32,000 nucleotides of DNA from Candidatus Saccharimonadota bacterium (GTDB lineage: Bacteria > Patescibacteriota > Saccharimonadia > Saccharimonadales > Saccharimonadaceae), in assembly GCA_001029695.1 (NCBI GenBank), contig CP011211.1, positions 360,001 through 392,000 on the forward strand. The letters run 5' to 3'. The notes below the pieces were generated by a model. That model saw only the letters and a list, made by a program, of their open reading frames with translations, was not told where the DNA came from and did not search any database. This document shows positions 10,312-19,143 of this stretch, piece after piece. Position 1 is the stretch's first letter. Each line of letters opens with the position of its first letter. Position numbers and translations under genes: made by a program.

Positions 10312-11751
10312 TTACGCGTCGACGTCTTGACTCGAAAGGTCAGTTGGCGCGATACTCTCTAGCCACAGCTGCAATTCTTGCAAAATAAACTGCTTATTTT
10401 CATCTTTTTCCGTTGCCGACAAGCGACCAAGTGACTTCATAAATTCCGGTAGCTGGTCATGAATATGAGCAATTCGCCAGCGTTCCCACTCATGTTGCTC
10501 GCTATCCGTCAGCGTCTTTGGAAAGTTACGCGCCTTATAGTGTACGAGTAGCTGTCCGAGCCGTTCGTCGCTAAATTCCGGCTGAAAATCAGCAAGTTCT
10601 CGCTCAGTAGCATTGCGCACTGTCTCTACTCGGAGTCGATCTCGATCATTCAAGAACCCATCGTATAGCTGCGCCTCAACATCTTTAGATTTTTTAAATT
10701 CAGGACGCTTTTCGATAAGACTACGGATATTTTCTGCGAAATGAGGTGCGCTCAAGAGTGCAGCCTTGTGCTTCTCGATAGTCTCCATGTCTAGGTGAAT
10801 CCGCTTCCATCCGTCAGCCTGCTCCAGTACGCCCACGGGTGCAACCGCTGGTGCACGATTATACTGCAATTCCTTTACTGGAAGTTTTACGAAGCCTTCA
10901 GATTGACGCTCGTCCCACGAGGCGGACATTTTCTTTGCCAGTTCATCCTGCGAAAGGTTAAGGAGCGGCGAAGGGTCGTAACGAAGATCATACACGACAA
11001 CATTGCCATTCTTCCCCGGGGTCAACGGGAATGCAATGGTGGTTTTGTCATGCTCGTTATCATACCGTCCACTCGTATAGACAAACGGCTTTTTGTCGTC
11101 TACATTCACCAGCTTCTTTACTTCGTTTTTGTCACGCATCTTCAGAAGATAGCTATAGAGCTGCGGCTGTTTTTGCTTAATCAGATTCGTCACCGCAATC
11201 AGCGCTTCAACATCACTCAGGGCATCGTGCGCTTTTAGGTGGTCGATACCATTTTGCGCAGTGAGAAGCTCTAGGCGATTCGTCGCCTTGCCGTCCTCAG
11301 TGACAGGCCAGACAATCCCCTCTGGTCGAAGTGCCCGCGTCATGCGCACAACATCAAGTAAATCCCATCTGGAGCGTCCATCTCGCCACGACCACTCATA
11401 TGGGTCCCTAAACGTTCGCCAAAAAAGGTGGCGTACAAATTCGTCGTCAAACCGAATACTATTAAACCCAACGGCAATAGTATTTTCAGTGAATATCTCA
11501 CTTGTCAGAAGCTCGGCAAACTGCGCCTCGGTATACCCGTCTGCTACTGTCTGCTGCGGCGTAATCCCTGTCACCATCAGCGCTTCCGGACTTGGGAGTG
11601 TATCATCATTTAAAGCAACGAGTACATCGTAGGGCTCGCCGATAGGATTGAGCTCCATATCAGTGCGGATTCCAGCGAATTGCATAATTCGTGCATCACG
11701 CGCACTGAGTCCGCTCGTTTCAAGGTCGTAAAAAAAGAATGTTTGAGCCAT
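10312..11751 (-). CDS. sbcB: exodeoxyribonuclease I
   Basis: 479 aa. It has the DEDDh Exo I motif FFFYDLETSG, the Exo III motif KAHDALSDVEALI and an ExoI-type SH3-like/C-terminal region. Confidence 0.9.
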   Translation of the reverse strand: MAQTFFFYDLETSGLSARDARIMQFAGIRTDMELNPIGEPYDVLVALNDDTLPSPEALMVTGITPQQTVADGYTEAQFAELLTSEIFTENTIAVGFNSIRFDDEFVRHLFWRTFRDPYEWSWRDGRSRWDLLDVVRMTRALRPEGIVWPVTEDGKATNRLELLTAQNGIDHLKAHDALSDVEALIAVTNLIKQKQPQLYSYLLKMRDKNEVKKLVNVDDKKPFVYTSGRYDNEHDKTTIAFPLTPGKNGNVVVYDLRYDPSPLLNLSQDELAKKMSASWDERQSEGFVKLPVKELQYNRAPAVAPVGVLEQADGWKRIHLDMETIEKHKAALLSAPHFAENIRSLIEKRPEFKKSKDVEAQLYDGFLNDRDRLRVETVRNATERELADFQPEFSDERLGQLLVHYKARNFPKTLTDSEQHEWERWRIAHIHDQLPEFMKSLGRLSATEKDENKQFILQELQLWLESIAPTDLSSQDVDA

Positions 11752-11757
11752 ATGCTT

Positions 11758-11786
11758 ATTCTACAGACTCTGACGCTATCCTGCAA
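11758..11786 (-). promoter_or_regulatory. candidate sbcB promoter TTGCAG-17-TAGAAT, with the -10 only 6 nt from the ATG (leaderless-type)
   Basis: The minus strand reads TTGCAGgatagcgtcagagtctgTAGAATaagcatATG. There is no SD. Confidence 0.45.
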
Positions 11787-11795
11787 AAGGTACAG

Positions 11796-11822
11796 AAAAA
11801 ACCCACCTCAATCGGAGGTGGG
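11796..11822 (-). terminator. intrinsic terminator (minus strand)
   Basis: cccacctc (11802-11809) / aatcg loop / gaggtggg (11815-11822). On the minus strand the hairpin is followed by TTTTTT (11801-11796). Confidence 0.8.
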
Positions 11823-12111
11823 TAGTATAGAGTAACGAACAATAGAATGTAAGCGCGGGGCGAGGAGCTGCAGAGTAATCACTCTAGCTAAACTCCTCGC
11901 CACCGCAAGTGCAAATCGCAGCACCGACAGGCGCTCAAATGCGAACTCACGAGACGAAACTCGTCATCGTCTGCGGTGATCGTGCAAATTTCTATTTTCA
12001 CCACAGCTTACTAGCGACACGTCGCCTGTCGACAGTAAGCTGTGGTGGACTTTATTCAATTGTCATTACTTTACTACTTCACATGATACATTTTTGTCAT
12101 CATTGAAGTAT
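11796..12111 (-). ncRNA. candidate structured non-coding RNA of about 315 nt, class unassigned
   Basis: The locus is bounded by a consensus promoter (12118-12146) and the terminator at 11796-11822. It has no credible minus-strand ORF. It contains a 14-bp perfect hairpin (11999-12012 / 12034-12047), a 9-bp GC-rich hairpin (11859-11867 / 11893-11901) with a nested agagt/actct stem, and a 9-bp bulged hairpin (11949-11957 / 11961-11970). Confidence 0.5.
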
Positions 12112-12117
12112 GAATGC

Positions 12118-12146
12118 ATTATAGCAGATATCTAGATATATGTCAA
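12118..12146 (-). promoter_or_regulatory. consensus sigma70-type promoter TTGACA-17-TATAAT
   Basis: The minus strand reads TTGACAtatatctagatatctgcTATAAT, with -35 at 12146..12141 and -10 at 12123..12118. The predicted TSS is near 12111. Confidence 0.7.
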
Positions 12147-12160
12147 TAGTATTTTATAAA

Positions 12161-13651
12161 CTAATAAAGCTGCCTGTAGCCTGCAAACTCATACGAAGTC
12201 GTCGTCAAATAGCTCCCAAACGGAGTGTCAACAGGGGGTAGTAACGTTCGTTGTGTATGGAAACTAATATTGACACCTTGTCCGCCCATAGCACCAAACT
12301 TCGTACCCCCGTAGCAGTCAACTGTCGCATAATAAGCAAAGAAGCTAAGTCCCGGGAAATTATTACCACCACCAGACCCCCCACATTCCAATGCGGTATA
12401 CTGCGTCGCTTTCATCCAGCTTGGATCAAAGTCCGGTAAGTACGCAGATGCTTTTGCATCCGCTGGAAGCAGGCATGCGGATGCAGTCTCATCGATTCTA
12501 TTTGAGCAACTTGAATTATTCGAGTAAAAACTAATCATATACGCAGATAGGCCTGCTGAATTTTTTAAAAAAGCGTCACCTCCGCGAAAAGTAGCAGCCT
12601 GCTGTGCGATAAACTTTCCATTTAATACAATCGTCGGCCCATTCCCAGTCGCTGTATCGGCAACTCCAAACAGCGATCGCTCGTTGAGCGTAATATTACC
12701 TTCGACATAAACATCTCCAGCAAAAAGAACCTTACATCCAGATATATCTGTTGCTGATATACTACCCGTTATCCACGTATTTGCGGGCACCGTCCTCGTT
12801 CCTCCATTACATGACTGAGTGATCGATGCGCCCGTTACCTTTGCTGCGCTGTTCATTCGACCAACAAACTCCTGTTTATTAAAGTATGGCTGCGCGTAAC
12901 TTGGCGCTGCACATCCAAGCTGAAGCCCGGCAATCTTTGAGGATGCTGGCTGATCTGTGGCGCAAACATTCCCATAAACACCAACACCCAATGCGGACAC
13001 ATTTATAGGTGGAGCACTGGCGTTGCAAGCCATAGGCCAATCAGCAGCAACTCCACAAGATATGTTGGCCGCTTGCAGCAATCGAACAGGCTCAGCGGCG
13101 GAGCCAATCGATGAACTCTGTGCTAATGTTATACCGCCTTTTACATAAATATTATCACCATACAACTTAGACTGAGAGCCAATAGAAAGCCCTCCAGAAC
13201 CAGCAAATAACGATATTCCCGACATTGGCCTCAATACAGGGCGTAAGGTTACTTCAATCTTTTTCTCATTAACAAGACTGTCGTCTCCACTATCTCTGTA
13301 CACTCTACCAGTACTAGTGATAACTTTTTGTCCATTAGGCTTTGTGGTGACATCTGTGACGTAGGTTGCCCGCCCCTCAGAAGATGAGACTCGATCATAA
13401 AAAACTTGAGGGCTTGCCAAAGGAAAGCCAGTAAATCCAGGATTTTCTGCAAGTTTGTATTTCGTTGCGCCCACCCCCGCTTCCGCAGCAGAAATCGCAT
13501 TCTCAACATAAGTTACACGTTTAGAGTTCATGTATTTTGACCCTGCGACTGTCGCGATCGTAAAAGCGATAGCAGTGAGAACGAAAACAACTATCGTGAC
13601 ATAGATCAGCAAGTAGCCTTTTTCGTTTTTATGAAATGATTTAGCCATCAA
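12161..13651 (-). CDS. large pilus-associated protein: PilX_N-like hydrophobic N-terminus plus a cysteine-rich C-terminal module of about 345 aa
   Basis: The N-terminus KGYLLIYVTIVVFVLTAIAFTIATVAG...NAISAAEAGV resembles the PilX N-terminal domain (no Glu+5). The gene overlaps the upstream minor pilin by 4 nt (ATGA). It has 10 Cys, all in the C-terminal module. Confidence 0.7.
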   Translation of the reverse strand: MMAKSFHKNEKGYLLIYVTIVVFVLTAIAFTIATVAGSKYMNSKRVTYVENAISAAEAGVGATKYKLAENPGFTGFPLASPQVFYDRVSSSEGRATYVTDVTTKPNGQKVITSTGRVYRDSGDDSLVNEKKIEVTLRPVLRPMSGISLFAGSGGLSIGSQSKLYGDNIYVKGGITLAQSSSIGSAAEPVRLLQAANISCGVAADWPMACNASAPPINVSALGVGVYGNVCATDQPASSKIAGLQLGCAAPSYAQPYFNKQEFVGRMNSAAKVTGASITQSCNGGTRTVPANTWITGSISATDISGCKVLFAGDVYVEGNITLNERSLFGVADTATGNGPTIVLNGKFIAQQAATFRGGDAFLKNSAGLSAYMISFYSNNSSCSNRIDETASACLLPADAKASAYLPDFDPSWMKATQYTALECGGSGGGNNFPGLSFFAYYATVDCYGGTKFGAMGGQGVNISFHTQRTLLPPVDTPFGSYLTTTSYEFAGYRQLY

Positions 13652-14058
13652 AAGACGTCCTTTGGCTCTACATAAGCCATCACGACAACCTGCTTTCTAT
13701 TCGAACCAAGAGGATAATCTATTACTACTTGTAACTGCCTCGCAGACGGCACCGCTGTCGGAACCGTGACGGTGACTTTCCCGGTCGTACCTGCTGGCAT
13801 ATCGGTAATCGCGCTAGTGAAGTCTATCGGTGCAGCAGCACTCGTCAACACCGTAAAATCCCCATTTCTTAATAGTTCAATCTGCTGTCGAGCTGCTCGA
13901 TTTGCCGTATCAACATAAAAAGAGTCTCTTTGCGCATACTGGATGTACTGCACGGCCGAAACAATAGAGACAATCGTGAGGCTAAAAACGACAACCGATA
14001 CAATAATCTCTATTGTCGTAAAGCCTGATTGTCGTCGTTGGCTAAAAGTAGCTGCCAT
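13648..14058 (-). CDS. type IV minor pilin / pseudopilin (PilV/GspI-like)
   Basis: Prepilin N-terminal cleavage/methylation motif QSG|FTTIEIIVSVVVFSL with Glu at +5. 136 aa. Confidence 0.8.
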   Translation of the reverse strand: MAATFSQRRQSGFTTIEIIVSVVVFSLTIVSIVSAVQYIQYAQRDSFYVDTANRAARQQIELLRNGDFTVLTSAAAPIDFTSAITDMPAGTTGKVTVTVPTAVPSARQLQVVIDYPLGSNRKQVVVMAYVEPKDVF

Positions 14059-14075
14059 AAGATTTGTTTATCCCG

Positions 14076-14501
14076 TTACGGCCTTATGACTTCATTTTCG
14101 GTACTTGCGCCACCCCAGTATGGACCAGGAATAGTGATCGTATAGGAAGTACATCGTGGGCTCGTAGGACTGCCACACCCAGATGGAGTGGGCGCGTACT
14201 GAATGCTCTGACTATTTTTTGTGAGGTTAAAAGCATCACCTAGCTGACTACCTACGCCACCGATATACGCCACGACAGCGGCCTTATTCTCAGGATAATT
14301 ATTCTTATCTGTAAAATACTCACCTAGCTTCAGCTTTACTTGCTGCGCAGTAGACACTACATCCGATTTAGCTGCACGTTTTTGGTATCCCGAGTATGAT
14401 ACAGTGCCGATTGCAGCCAAAATACCGATAATCGTAATTACAGTTATAAGTTCAATGATCGTAAATCCATAAGTGGTTCGTTTTACTTGAGTCGTCATCA
14501 C
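14076..14501 (-). CDS. type IV pilin (likely the major subunit of this cluster)
   Basis: Prepilin motif TYG|FTIIELITVITIIGILAAIG with Glu at +5. 141 aa with two C-terminal Cys (CGSPTSPRC), typical of a disulfide-bonded D-region. GAGGG SD lies upstream. Confidence 0.85.
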   Translation of the reverse strand: MMTTQVKRTTYGFTIIELITVITIIGILAAIGTVSYSGYQKRAAKSDVVSTAQQVKLKLGEYFTDKNNYPENKAAVVAYIGGVGSQLGDAFNLTKNSQSIQYAPTPSGCGSPTSPRCTSYTITIPGPYWGGASTENEVIRP

Positions 14502-14628
14502 TGTTTTAACCCTCTAATCATAAGCGCTTTATTTATAGATCATCATACCATTAACTGTAGTACGAGTAAACCACACAGGCCCCCTCCCCTGTACTAGTGA
14601 AGCTGTTTATGCTTAAATAGACTGCACT

Positions 14629-16359
14629 ATGACGCAATCGCGCAATCATTCGCTACCACGCAAAACGAGCGATGGATTTACCATCGTAGAGATGATTGTT
14701 GCAGTGACCGTTTCGACGTTCATGCTTGTTGCGATCGTTGGCTTTATCGTTACCCTGATCCAGCAATACGGAGTAAGCTCGCAGCGAAACACGTTGACAA
14801 CGAATCTTCAAGCTGCAACCTCACGTATAAATGACGACATACGAAAATCCGTCGCCGTCCTACCGACAAACCAAACAGATGACCCTAACGGCCCATCTCC
14901 TACCACACGATGGTCCTCGAAAGTAGACCAGCTTGTTCTCGGACAAAAACCAACATTAGCAGACGGCACTCTCATCGACACAGAAGCGCTCGATAGCGTT
15001 GTTTATTATCTCAAGGAAAGATCCCTCTACCGCCGCGTCGTGGCTGCAAGCACGACTCCACCAAATAGTATTTCCACTATTACGTGTGGCACAACGGCTA
15101 ACGGCTGCCCCGACGATGTCAGGGTTGTAGAAAATGTCGACAGCATAGCCTTCACCTACAGAAATAATGCAAATGCCGTTATCTCCTATAGTCCAAACGC
15201 CGTAACGAATGTTTCCTTTGCTATAAAACTCACCACCGAACAGAGCGGGCAAACCATAGAATCAAGTGGAAAATCTAGCATGACACTTCGACAGCAAACG
15301 CTCACCTACAATCGTACGCCGCTAAGCGTAGGGTCTGGAGGACTGCTCGTCAATAAAATGAACATGAATGTTCAGCCCAACGCCGACCTTACTGTCAAAG
15401 GGAGGATAAACTGGGGATCTGCTGGAGCAGCAGCGTATATTTATACACTGGGTACAGCGTCACAGCCAATCCGAAACCTTGCCGTTGCAGGTATCGCCTG
15501 TGGAACCGGCAGTTCATTCCCAACTCAATGCGCATCCCCCACAATCATTTCTGGTGCAGCATCAAAGATCACTACTCAAAACCTTTGCGCACCCGCACAC
15601 ACCGGTTCGCTTATCAATCCAACAATAGCGACCTCCACCAACACAGCACCGACAAGAACGTGTGACTCAGCTGCCTACGACCTTCCAGCATTCAATAGAG
15701 AGGCATTCTACAATAAGATGAACCAGCCGGCCGTCAATGGTACGCGTGTGTGCGGCGCAGCTCAGACATGCTCGCTTGAAGCAAATACGATTTATAACGG
15801 TGATATCGGTGGTGGGAGTGGCTTTCCTTCTGTCCCAAATCGTGCAAAATGGGAGATCAAAGGTGATATTTACGTAAGAGGTAACTTCGGAAATGCCGGA
15901 CTTGGTGCAAGCTCAGTCGCATCGTTCGAAGAATATAAAGTCGCCGACGGAATCACCAAGCGACCAGTTGTTGTGATCGAAAAGCAATTCTGGATTATCC
16001 TTGGCTCTGTCGTCCCAAATGACAAGGGCATCACTCCTATATTTATCAGTTACTATACACAGTCAAATCCCAGCTGTTCAAGCGATCCTAGCTGCAGCAC
16101 GCTAACACCAGCACAAGCCGCGCAAGAAGCCAACAACACAGACCCAAACAACCACGCGGTACGCTATGGGACCACATCGGGTGATACATACGGCAACTTC
16201 AGCGGATCACTCTACTCGTATTTTGGAAGAGTGAGTATCAATATCTGGTTTGGCGGCACATTCACCGGAACTGTCGCCGGTCAATCAGTGCTCCTCCAAG
16301 GCAGTAACAATACGACGTCCGCAACCTTCAATATGACAAACGAACCGTGGCCAAATTAG
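14629..16359 (+). CDS. large minor-pilin-like protein: PilW/GspJ-like N-terminal region plus a cysteine-rich C-terminal module of about 340 aa
   Basis: Prepilin motif SDG|FTIVEMIVAVTV with Glu at +5. VVYYLKERSLYRRV...SIAFTY resembles PilW/GspJ. The C-terminal part is collinear with the C-terminal module of ORF 12161..13651. 10 Cys. Confidence 0.75.
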   Translation: MTQSRNHSLPRKTSDGFTIVEMIVAVTVSTFMLVAIVGFIVTLIQQYGVSSQRNTLTTNLQAATSRINDDIRKSVAVLPTNQTDDPNGPSPTTRWSSKVDQLVLGQKPTLADGTLIDTEALDSVVYYLKERSLYRRVVAASTTPPNSISTITCGTTANGCPDDVRVVENVDSIAFTYRNNANAVISYSPNAVTNVSFAIKLTTEQSGQTIESSGKSSMTLRQQTLTYNRTPLSVGSGGLLVNKMNMNVQPNADLTVKGRINWGSAGAAAYIYTLGTASQPIRNLAVAGIACGTGSSFPTQCASPTIISGAASKITTQNLCAPAHTGSLINPTIATSTNTAPTRTCDSAAYDLPAFNREAFYNKMNQPAVNGTRVCGAAQTCSLEANTIYNGDIGGGSGFPSVPNRAKWEIKGDIYVRGNFGNAGLGASSVASFEEYKVADGITKRPVVVIEKQFWIILGSVVPNDKGITPIFISYYTQSNPSCSSDPSCSTLTPAQAAQEANNTDPNNHAVRYGTTSGDTYGNFSGSLYSYFGRVSINIWFGGTFTGTVAGQSVLLQGSNNTTSATFNMTNEPWPN

Positions 16360-17725: not shown

Positions 17726-18907
17726 CTAGTGAATATAATTGTATGATTTTGCTTGGCCAGCTGAGATAGTACGGCCGGATATAATATTGAATCCGCCACC
17801 GCCACCGCCATAGTTCATTTCACTGATACGTATGTCACCGTTTGAAAGCACTTCTTCGACAATCGCAACGTGTCCATAGCCACCACCGTTTTGCATAACT
17901 GCACCAACCGCTGGCGTATTGTTGACAGCGAAGCCTGCAGCACGTGCGTACATTGCCCAAGTTGCCGCGTTACCCCAGAAACTGCCCACAGGACGTCCAA
18001 GTTGCGCACGACGCTCGTATGCGTACCATGTACAGTTACCGAACGCATAGGCATTTCCTGAAGAAACGTTTGCCATACCTCGGCTAATTGTATACCCACC
18101 AGAGTTATTCGCACCGTAGCTCGTACCTGTGCTTGCACGAGCAGTACTTGGAGCCTGATAGCCTGGGCGCTGGTCTTCCGGAAGCACGCCTGCTGGAATA
18201 ACGATACGACGATCCTTGGTGAGTCCATCGATTTCAAGATCATTAAATGAGACAATGCGATCTTTATCTGCCTTGAACGTACTTGCGATCTTTTCTGGCG
18301 TATCACCATCCTTGATCGTATACACTACACCATCAACAGGTGGAACGGTAAGTACTTTGTTCGCTTCTATCGCATCTGATGAGAGATTGTTGGCCCACTT
18401 TAGTGTCTCAGGAGAAATACTATGAGCAGCAGCGATTGACTGGGCAGTGTCACCTGCTTTTGCCGTATAGCTAGTAATATCTCGACTAGCTGCAGTTGCT
18501 TGGATGATTTGAGGCTTACTAATAGCAGACTCGCTCGTCTGAGAAAGTTCTGTTTTAGCTGCAAGAGAAACAGACAAGTTAGCAACGTTAGCTGCAACTG
18601 GCATATTCGTTTGTTCTGCGAAGTTCGCTGCAATGTCAGTTGCAACAACTTCGTCTACAGAAGGCCTATCAACATTGACACCTGTATTAGATGACTGGGC
18701 AACACTTGCTACTTGAGCAGGCTGAGGTTGGCGATAGCCAATAGCTACAATAGATATAATAAGGACAAAAATACCTGAATATGCAGCAAATGTTGCTAGT
18801 TTAGGTTTCGAAAAAGCCTTCTTATGACGCTTGTTCTTGCCTAAAACTTGTTGTTTTAGCTGTGCGTTTGATGCAAATGCATCGGGCGCAATTGGTTGGT
18901 TACGAAT
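17726..18907 (-). CDS. membrane-anchored peptidoglycan hydrolase: N-terminal TM, two LysM domains and a CHAP amidase/peptidase domain. Proposed non-AUG start.
   Basis: LysM motifs are YTAKAGDTAQSIAAAHSISPETLKWANNL and YTIKDGDTPEKIASTFKADKDRIVSFNDL. The CHAP motif is FGNCTWYAYERR...GHVAIVEEV. The frame is open to 18943 and encodes KKAFSKPKLATFAAYSGIFVLIISIVAIGY upstream of the first ATG (18604). AGGAG lies 7 nt before an in-frame ATT at 18907. Confidence 0.75.
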   Translation of the reverse strand: MRNQPIAPDAFASNAQLKQQVLGKNKRHKKAFSKPKLATFAAYSGIFVLIISIVAIGYRQPQPAQVASVAQSSNTGVNVDRPSVDEVVATDIAANFAEQTNMPVAANVANLSVSLAAKTELSQTSESAISKPQIIQATAASRDITSYTAKAGDTAQSIAAAHSISPETLKWANNLSSDAIEANKVLTVPPVDGVVYTIKDGDTPEKIASTFKADKDRIVSFNDLEIDGLTKDRRIVIPAGVLPEDQRPGYQAPSTARASTGTSYGANNSGGYTISRGMANVSSGNAYAFGNCTWYAYERRAQLGRPVGSFWGNAATWAMYARAAGFAVNNTPAVGAVMQNGGGYGHVAIVEEVLSNGDIRISEMNYGGGGGGFNIISGRTISAGQAKSYNYIH

Positions 18908-19143
18908 TATCGTTCTCCTGCTGCCTATATTACTATAGGAGCACTACCTTACTCTGTCTTTCTTCTCGCAAATAGAACGGGGTACGTGTCGACCGAATTC
19001 ATTAATTAATATTTTTTGAAAATGTTCATTTCGGTACCCGTGCGACATTTGTCGGTAGGCTCATTTATGTTTCACACTTCCCGCTCGCATATGCTTCCAG
19101 ACTGGCTGCATTAGTAGATGAAATCACAAATGTGCTGTAACTT

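Follow-up and report, generated by a model that had tools for sequence, protein, structure and literature searches.

The only perfect promoter in a 32,000-nucleotide stretch of a Candidatus Saccharimonadota genome (assembly GCA_001029695.1, contig CP011211.1, positions 360,001 to 392,000; the whole stretch is hereafter called the window) stands in front of some 315 nucleotides that the original prediction, made from the sequence alone, took to be a structured RNA of no known class. What does this promoter transcribe, and does the product belong to a family? The locus lies on the minus strand, from about 12111 to 11797, between a pilin-like gene and sbcB, the gene for exonuclease I (all coordinates are those of the window and, unless stated otherwise, of the minus strand). 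At a probability of roughly 60%, our preferred answer is that it is an independent gene for a structured RNA of ~315 nt, and that this RNA is a compact member of an unclassified family that occupies one locus in environmental Saccharimonadales. The promoter (12118..12146) comprises a -35 element TTGACA (12146..12141), a 17-nt spacer, an extended -10 TG (12126..12125) and a -10 element TATAAT (12123..12118). It scores 12/12 for sigma-70 in addition to the TG and is the sole 12/12 site on either strand of the window; by chance, about 0.01 such sites are expected in the 64 kb of both strands. From these signals we infer a transcription start at about 12111. The unit ends in an intrinsic terminator (11796..11823; ACCCACCTC-CGATT-GAGGTGGGT followed by T6) with a 9-bp stem that holds six G-C pairs and a 5-nt loop. 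This element is more stable than its shuffles (z = -4.9, pair probability 0.98) and is the one terminator-like site within 11700-12250, where shuffled sequences lead us to expect 0.3. The sbcB promoter lies outside the unit, downstream of the terminator. The consensus promoter, the terminator about 315 nt further on and a separately promoted sbcB had all been claimed in the original prediction, as had the view that the RNA is a stand-alone gene rather than a leader, and our analysis supports each of them. The promoter is moreover kept in relatives whether the gene upstream encodes a pilin or is obg, which shows that the unit is not merely the 3' untranslated region of the pilin operon.

To examine the fold of this RNA, we compared it with shuffled sequences of the same dinucleotide composition. 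The whole ~317-nt RNA has a minimum free energy of -141.4 kcal/mol against -85.9 +/- 5.4 for the shuffles (z = -10.3), none of the 100 shuffles being as stable, and its predicted shape is a multi-branch junction and not a rod. Four helices, P1 to P4, together with the terminator emerge from the minimum free energy fold of the window sequence alone, at pair probabilities of 0.85-0.98. P1 is the 5'-terminal hairpin (12075..12110; UACUUCAAUGAUGACA / UGUAUCAUGUGAAGUA; mean pair probability 0.90, z = -4.5). P2 closes the remainder of the RNA over a long range: its 5' arm, which we call the box (12049..12074; GUAAAGUAAUGACAAUUGAAUAAAGU; family consensus about CAUUGACAAGYUGGAUA), pairs with a 3' arm (11827..11854; GCUUACAUUCUAUUGUUCGUUACUCUAU) that lies 195 nt downstream, just before the terminator. 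The resulting helix (12074..12049 with 11854..11827) has 23 bp with bulges and a pair probability of 0.85. P3 (11999..12047) follows directly after the box as a 21-bp hairpin with GTCGAC at its apex (-33 kcal/mol, z = -7.2); its base is the perfect 14-bp stem, 11999-12012/12034-12047, that had been recognized before. P4 (11855..11906) is a GC-rich 22-bp hairpin, GCGGUGGCGAGGAG...CUCCUCGCCCCGC, that abuts the 3' arm of P2. It corresponds to the GGCGAGGAG/CUCCUCGCC hairpin with a nested AGAGU/ACUCU stem (11906..11855; -36.5 kcal/mol, z = -6.5, pair probability 0.97). P3 and P4 therefore both lie inside the domain closed by P2, P3 beside its 5' arm and P4 beside its 3' arm. The middle of the RNA (11907..11987) folds less firmly, at pair probabilities of 0.58-0.72, into a weak 4-bp stem (11987..11971), a hairpin H5 (11970..11949; ACGAUGACGA/UCGUCUCGU; z = -3.3) and a hairpin H6 (11948..11907; z = -1.8). 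All hairpins of the original prediction, including the AGAGT/ACTCT-nested stem, a bulged 9-bp stem and the 5' hairpin, are thus present where it placed them; what its list missed is P2, the 23-bp helix between the 5' and 3' parts of the RNA and the most important element of all.

We searched for relatives of the RNA in 164 sbcB loci, drawn from species-representative genomes and metagenomes, and in phage genomes. With blastn and nhmmer, the only sequence homologue found was in a contig of the same species (L081). The family was instead recognized by synteny and architecture, not by sequence, and comprises 26 units from about 23 distinct loci of environmental Saccharimonadales (soil, groundwater). 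Just ahead of sbcB, these units share one order of elements: a near-consensus promoter leads into P1, the box and P3, the interior that follows is variable, and the complement of the box comes last before the terminator. The family promoters score 10.6/12 on average (perfect in 8 of 26 units), carry the TG in 24 of 26 and lie 30-45 nt upstream of the box module (45 nt in the window). In every one of the 26, a gap of 14-45 nt separates the terminator T-run from the sbcB ATG. The upstream neighbour varies (obg or pilin genes) while the link to sbcB persists. P1 of the relatives is a hairpin at the same position with another sequence, often with a Shine-Dalgarno-like UGAGGUGA loop; this loop motif is absent from P1 of the window. 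The window unit is the most compact, as its distance from box to 3' arm is ~225 nt compared to 440-750 nt in most relatives. Across the family, P2 spans 230-750 nt, and most of the relatives' units are 600-900 nt long. Every conserved family element is retained in the window copy, with the middle cut down to H5 and H6. A second compact unit (L007) is also well formed, and the unit is missing altogether from two loci (L083/L084).

To define the core of the family, we built a covariance model, R1, of the box and P3 from 13 seed sequences. In the window, itself a seed sequence, R1 matches one copy (11995-12073; 58.1 bits, E = 3e-8). It also recovers the same-species contig L081 and 13 non-seed units, all on the sbcB strand and at a distance of 0.5-0.9 kb ahead of sbcB; some of them are arranged in tandem. 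No R1 match was found in 682 kb of viral contigs with chance 17-mer matches to the box, and none of the 94 viral 17-mer matches is a true copy. In the host-associated clade, whose sbcB is at most 72% identical, 700 kb likewise contained no R1 match. A sequence-only profile of P1 and the box gave no further copies elsewhere in the locus flanks, and with none away from the site upstream of sbcB, we rejected the idea that this 5' module serves as an untranslated region for genes in general. The box contains a TTGACA, and we considered whether it might hold a second promoter; no family member has a -10 element at a usable spacing, and this candidate was rejected.

Conservation and covariation in relatives bear directly on whether the fold is real, and we found that the architecture is conserved and that P2 and P3 covary strongly. 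An initial search for ungapped complementary segments over 900 nt gave too high a background; we used duplex folding of own versus cross-species arms and a separate-arm alignment instead. Duplexes of P2 arms from the same species have a mean energy of -22.9 kcal/mol, compared to -12.0 kcal/mol when the arms come from different species, and in 10 of 13 cases the best partner is the arm's own. In all 13 units found later by R1, P2 duplexes of -18 to -35 kcal/mol abut the terminator. For the register test, the two arms of the 26 units were aligned separately by MAFFT and the pairs were taken from one reference. In register, 72% of the cells are paired. Sliding the arms by 1-3 columns lowers this to 31-40%, and permuting the partners among species gives 60.5 +/- 1.4% (maximum 65.5%). 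Changes on both sides occur in 19 of 23 pairs. P3, in an alignment blind to structure, has 93% of its cells paired, as against 73.6 +/- 1.6% after shuffling (0 of 500 shuffles attain the observed value) and 36-50% when slid. Double changes were observed in 20 of its 22 pairs, and one G.U pair is kept in 11 of 13 sequences, that of the window among them. An equivalent of P4 stands next to the 3' arm in ~21 of the 26 units (median -38 kcal/mol, z ~ -5). Its sequence differs from unit to unit, and its 5' arm is G-rich in 21 of 26. Across P3 and P4 we counted 140 G.U pairs and 20 A.C single mismatches. Such an excess of G.U over A.C shows that the helices are selected in an RNA of the sbcB-sense strand and not as DNA palindromes.

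The same-species contig L081 allowed a further comparison, over a shorter evolutionary distance. The RNA differs from that of the window at 4 of 317 positions (1.3%), compared to 34 of ~480 third codon positions of sbcB (7.1%); sbcB as a whole is ~3% diverged, and the differences are spread evenly with no tract of low divergence. Two of the four changes in the RNA fall in the P1 loop and two in P2, and all four are structure-neutral: a U-to-C change at 12065 turns a U.G pair of P2 into C-G, and a C-to-U change at 11845 turns a G-C pair into G.U. By this comparison of sequences, the window RNA is shown to be under purifying selection and to evolve more slowly than the neighbouring synonymous sites.

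Does the RNA encode a peptide? In the window, we found no strong Shine-Dalgarno-led open reading frame (ORF) in the RNA, in line with the original prediction. The sole coding candidate is a 24-codon GTG frame with a GGAG 10 nt upstream; it is unconserved and runs into the terminator, and both its GGAG and its start codon are buried in the perfect P4 stem. All signals examined agree, as the window lacks Shine-Dalgarno starts, the mini-ORF motifs described below and the P1 loop motif alike. Given that the middle holds no Shine-Dalgarno-led start, a non-coding role is the most likely one for the RNA in this species. We also note a 6-codon AUG frame without a Shine-Dalgarno sequence (MTSFVS*) that exactly spans H5 (11949-11970).

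The relatives present a different picture. The family units contain 58 strong Shine-Dalgarno starts in the sense direction, compared to 17 in the antisense direction and 12.9 in dinucleotide shuffles; the window contributes 0. Several mini-ORFs occur per RNA in the relatives, some of just 2-10 codons. One recurrent type, class A, is preceded by a good Shine-Dalgarno sequence and ends in (S/A/R)-G-F-(T/I)-stop in eight units (L001, L007, L008, L010, L019, L087, L093, and L097). Its members vary at third positions (GGT/GGC, TTT/TTC) and use all three stop codons. This codon-like variation, together with the use of three stops, is the signature of selection on the peptide or on its decoding, and class A may be a regulatory or arrest-type peptide. 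A second type, class D, carries AAR-CGA-AGA (Lys/Gln-Arg-Arg) 1-3 codons after the start, always with the same two Arg codons (L003, L008 (twice), L010, L018, L087, and L097); here the conservation is at the nucleotide or codon level rather than at the peptide level. Other units contain orphan ORFs of 35-115 amino acids, two of them with signal peptides. None of the relatives' cargo ORFs has a Pfam match, and the two proteins with signal peptides resemble each other very little. The excess of Shine-Dalgarno starts and the codon-like class A indicate that the family consists mainly of structured, end-paired transcripts that are engaged by ribosomes. The earlier conclusion that the transcript is not a protein gene consequently applies to the window RNA alone, as most members of the family have mini-ORFs that look translated. 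The family is better described as one of small-ORF-bearing or dual-function structured transcripts, with the window as a compact ORF-less form, and the lack of Shine-Dalgarno-led mini-ORFs in the window marks them as a variable feature that does not define the family.

We propose the following scheme for how such an RNA gene would work. The strong promoter, as read from its sequence, would make the RNA abundant. By analogy with hok-type and AapA1-type mRNAs, P1, the end-pairing P2 and the terminator hairpin would guard the RNA against ribonucleases that attack from the 5' or the 3' end, and this protection would keep the RNA compact and long-lived. In most relatives, the scaffold would carry ribosome-engaged mini-ORFs in its fast-evolving middle, and in the species of the window the RNA would act untranslated. 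Activity would reside in the conserved junction of P2, P3, and P4, which a protein that recognizes double-stranded RNA (dsRNA), for example RNase III, might plausibly bind or process; we suggest this because the size and regularity of the helices suit dsRNA-binding proteins such as RNase III. In a bolder version, the function of a new class of abundant Patescibacteria RNAs would lie in the Y-shaped P2/P3/P4 core itself. Its three long and nearly perfect helices, clamped at either end and transcribed from one of the genome's strongest promoters, would act as a decoy or scaffold for dsRNA-binding proteins or RNase III or as a ribosome-engaging regulator, with the mini-ORFs as accessories. We put this forward tentatively, at odds well short of even; if it is true, the ORF-less form in the window shows that the core is sufficient. 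When six single-stranded or apical segments of the RNA were compared with the 27 translation-initiation regions of the window, the best potential trans target had z = -3.4 in ~160 tests, which is at background level.

Several points weigh against an independent non-coding RNA gene in the window. The ends and the abundance of the transcript are inferred from sequence signals only, and the selection test consists of a single sequence pair, the window and L081. The middle of the window RNA, with H5 and H6, has thermodynamic support only and no homologue beyond L081 among the sbcB loci. At the density seen in relatives, the 132-nt interior is expected to hold ~0.6 Shine-Dalgarno-led starts, and their absence is therefore statistically unsurprising. 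The MTSFVS* frame, whose resemblance to class A is weak, could be a mini-ORF remnant or an atypical mini-ORF. As no partner protein, target or processing site has been identified, the mechanism is argued by analogy. Finally, the invariant adjacency to sbcB could mean that the unit has a role in cis.

A cis role on sbcB is the main rival to an independent gene, though we consider it unlikely. The unit might act through conditional read-through of its terminator (attenuation), the mini-ORFs of the relatives serving as leader peptides; alternatively, with its terminator on or beside the sbcB promoter, it might interfere with transcription or insulate the gene. Several points favour this: in all 26 units the T-run comes to within 14-45 nt of the sbcB ATG and the sbcB -10 element directly follows, the unit stays linked to sbcB even as the upstream gene switches between obg and pilin, lineages without an R1 match also have a promoter, a structured unit and a terminator at this site, and the mini-ORFs of the relatives resemble leader peptides. 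Tight spacing is, however, also expected from the compaction of small genomes, and the tandem upstream copies of three loci (L004, L014, and L096) are not adjacent to sbcB. The signals themselves also speak against a cis role: the terminators are strong (stems of 9-12 bp, T5-T7), no alternative antiterminator to the terminator was seen in the window, and sbcB has its own leaderless-type -10 element whether the unit is present or, as in L083, absent. A read-through transcript would moreover leave the sbcB ATG without a usable Shine-Dalgarno sequence. Somewhat less probable still is that the window copy is a relic, a decaying and functionless small-ORF mRNA that is still transcribed. It is the shortest unit (~225 nt versus 440-750 nt in most relatives) and the sole one without a strong Shine-Dalgarno-led start, it has lost the Shine-Dalgarno-like motif of the P1 loop, and L083 and L084 show that the whole unit can vanish. 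A decaying gene would sit uneasily, however, with a promoter that is still perfect (12/12 plus TG), with P2, P3, P4 and a terminator that are intact at pair probabilities of 0.85-0.98, and with a divergence from L081 of 1.3% versus 7.1% at third codon positions, all four changes being structure-neutral; the well-formed compact unit of L007 also argues against it.

Two further readings carry little weight. End-pairing of the kind found here invites a comparison with type I toxin-antitoxin loci, in which the RNA would be an end-paired, silent mRNA for a small toxin under antisense control. P2, which has 23 bp in the window and covaries across 26 units, the 5' hairpin and the strong promoter are all in keeping with this, and hydrophobic peptides are encoded in the first copy at L004 (39 amino acids, glycine-rich) and at L101 (21 amino acids). 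Such an ORF is nevertheless found in only 1-2 of the 26 relative units, and the window contains no hydrophobic small ORF. We also found no credible antisense gene: two plus-strand promoter sites of 9/12 point away from the RNA body, and there is no plus-strand terminator. The unit is single-copy and syntenic rather than scattered, and altogether we judge a toxin-antitoxin-like mRNA to be very improbable. The reading that the locus is a divergent known RNA missed by existing models (RNase P RNA, transfer-messenger RNA (tmRNA), signal recognition particle (SRP) RNA, 6S/Ms1, OLE/GOLLD/ROOL/raiA) or a DNA-level feature (palindromes, a mobile element or the template of a diversity-generating retroelement (DGR)) is largely refuted, and we give it hardly any credence. 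Its starting points are a size in the range of RNase P RNA and tmRNA, the AAAGUCC string, the resemblance of the P2 arms to terminal inverted repeats and the hypervariable pilin-like gene next door. Against these stand the lack of any credible Rfam match (Rfam 15, 4227 models, E up to 10), in which the best hits were microRNA and small nucleolar RNA noise of 10-19 bits, and the lack of any cmscan hit to these families at this threshold in the relatives. The interior is unconserved between species, which speaks against a universal catalytic RNA. On the DNA side, the predominance of G.U over A.C and the strand-specific promoter and terminator point to an RNA, and the fixed syntenic position, the absence of copies in the viral contigs and the lack of a template/variable-type repeat shared with the pilin-like gene all run counter to mobility or diversification.

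The individual candidates of this kind were tried and rejected as follows. RNase P RNA (RF00010/RF00011) gave no hit at E up to 10; its own P4 pseudoknot pairs the strands GGAAAGUCC ... ACAGAA..GGCUUA, whereas in the window RNA an AAAGUCC is present but forms the inner end of P2, and the sequence contains no ACAGAA..GGCUUA partner. For tmRNA (RF00023 and relatives), ARAGORN reported 0 genes, neither tRNA nor tmRNA, and cmscan gave no hit. SRP RNA (RF00169/RF01854) and 6S RNA (RF00013) gave no hit at E up to 10 either, and the fold is a multi-branch junction, not a rod. For OLE, GOLLD, ROOL, HEARO, and raiA, the covariance models matched neither the window nor any of ten relatives. When the equivalent regions of 14 relatives were compared with Rfam, nothing was found but the lysM-TM7 RNA elsewhere in those loci. 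A DNA inverted repeat, mobile element or inverton was dismissed on the G.U excess, the fixed syntenic position and the lack of true viral copies. A DGR template repeat for the pilin-like gene was dismissed as well, since no repeat is shared within 11700-14700 and none of seven neighbouring gene products has a reverse transcriptase Pfam match. Neither Rfam nor full-text literature searches yielded a prior description of this element.

The sbcB-upstream RNA is thus outside any known family and is nearest in kind to end-paired small-ORF mRNAs and to the orphan ornate non-coding RNAs. Pairing of the 5' and 3' ends to close the transcript is a hallmark of the hok and AapA1 mRNAs. The mRNAs of hok/sok of plasmid R1 and aapA1/IsoA1 of Helicobacter pylori are strongly transcribed, a few hundred nucleotides long and resemble our RNA: they have a 5' hairpin, and their 5' region pairs with 3' sequences that immediately precede the terminator, which closes them into a compact and stable shape. 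They also hold small ORFs inside the closed domain, as do the relatives of the window RNA. They differ in that the sbcB-upstream RNA has no toxin ORF (in the window and most relatives) or antisense gene and occupies a single syntenic locus, and they have no counterpart of its conserved P3 and P4 hairpins. OLE, GOLLD, ROOL, HEARO, and raiA are similarly intergenic and independently transcribed, with a multi-stem junction, a terminal helix and covariation. The sbcB-upstream family, in contrast, conserves only the scaffold, mostly bears mini-ORFs and is confined to one locus in one clade of Saccharimonadales. A structured scaffold with short translated frames, in which the ORF is kept or not depending on the member, is also known from RNAIII/hld, SgrS/SgrT, and SR1/SR1P; these share no sequence or structure homology with our RNA, no pairing target was found for the window RNA, and the relatives have several mini-ORFs per RNA. 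The processing stems of ribosomal RNA precursors, which are substrates of RNase III, likewise form a long-range helix of ~20 bp that flanks a structured interior, and P2, P3, and P4 are predicted to be long, nearly perfect duplexes of a size that RNase III could cleave; the interior of the sbcB-upstream RNA differs in holding no conserved mature RNA.

Saccharibacteria and other Patescibacteria have tiny genomes and an epibiotic lifestyle. To our knowledge, almost none of their regulatory RNAs have been characterized experimentally, and we know of only a handful of group-specific motifs in Rfam. A family that is supported by covariation and combines a fixed genomic address with turnover of its interior offers a testable entry point to RNA biology in this group. 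With translated-looking and apparently non-coding forms on one scaffold, it also provides a system for studying the interconversion of mRNA and non-coding RNA, and end-pairing outside toxin-antitoxin loci. The P1-P2-P3-P4 definition and R1 allow the RNA to be annotated in metagenome-assembled genomes, where the locus is now left blank or miscalled as tiny ORFs.

The genes that flank the RNA have features of their own. The sbcB gene (10312-11751, minus strand) has its ATG at 11751..11749, 44 nt past the terminator T-run, and its closest homologues are all from Saccharibacteria/Saccharimonadales. Its promoter, TTTGCA-18-TAGAAT (11787..11758), has a -10 element (TAGAAT, 11763..11758) that stops 6 nt short of the ATG, from which we conclude that sbcB has its own promoter and, judging by this spacing, that its mRNA is probably leaderless in the window. 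The gene appears leaderless in all relatives examined as well (L001-L018): a -10 element of the form TAGAAT, TATTAT or TATGAT, in many cases next to a TG, ends at 6-7 nt from the ATG and stands immediately behind the T-run of the upstream terminator. The same spacing of 6-7 nt is seen in L083, in which the RNA unit is absent. On the other side of the RNA, a pilin-like gene cluster with N-methylation motifs (12161-14501, minus strand) has a 496-amino-acid ORF at its end (12161-13651). This ORF is ~50% diverged and essentially unalignable between the window and L081, whereas the adjoining RNA and sbcB are 97-99% identical; by its sequence, it resembles a surface gene that is hypervariable or a cassette that has been exchanged. 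The breakpoint in divergence coincides with the promoter of the RNA, and since the pilin-like gene cannot be aligned, the conserved block begins at this promoter.

Among the relatives, three loci contain tandem units: three at L004 (3140-5000), two at L014 (3570-5000) and two at L096 (1140-2480). Their cargo ORFs are unrelated and include a 39-amino-acid hydrophobic glycine-rich peptide and GGSGD/GGFGD peptides, and in the middle copy of L004, P1 and the box are fused straight to a Shine-Dalgarno-led ORF without P3. Several loci with no R1 match (L012, L015, L016/L017, L023, and L009) have a strong promoter, a structured unit of 250-330 nt with a long-range closing helix, and a terminator, 300-600 nt upstream of sbcB. 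L015 and L023 have stretches of sequence in common, among them a Shine-Dalgarno sequence with an AUG-UAG start-stop behind it. None of these units has an Rfam match, and by their layout they may represent a second, related RNA class. One family contig (L001, SEAL01000020.1) is titled 'Chloroflexi bacterium', yet its sbcB is 80% identical to that of the window and it carries a Saccharibacteria-type RNA unit; it was probably mis-binned.

The only Rfam family detected in the window is the lysM-TM7 RNA (RF03005), 7 kb from the sbcB-upstream RNA. It is present at full length (18915-19060, minus strand; 107.8 bits) upstream of a LysM-CHAP gene (17726-18604, minus strand) and marks the window as Saccharibacteria DNA. 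Both RNAs are Saccharibacteria-specific structured motifs, and they occur in the same relatives; the lysM-TM7 RNA differs in being a 138-nt cis-regulatory leader of the LysM gene and is unrelated in sequence, structure and context. It recurs in six of the loci that we compared (L007, L008, L010, L012, L015, and L018).

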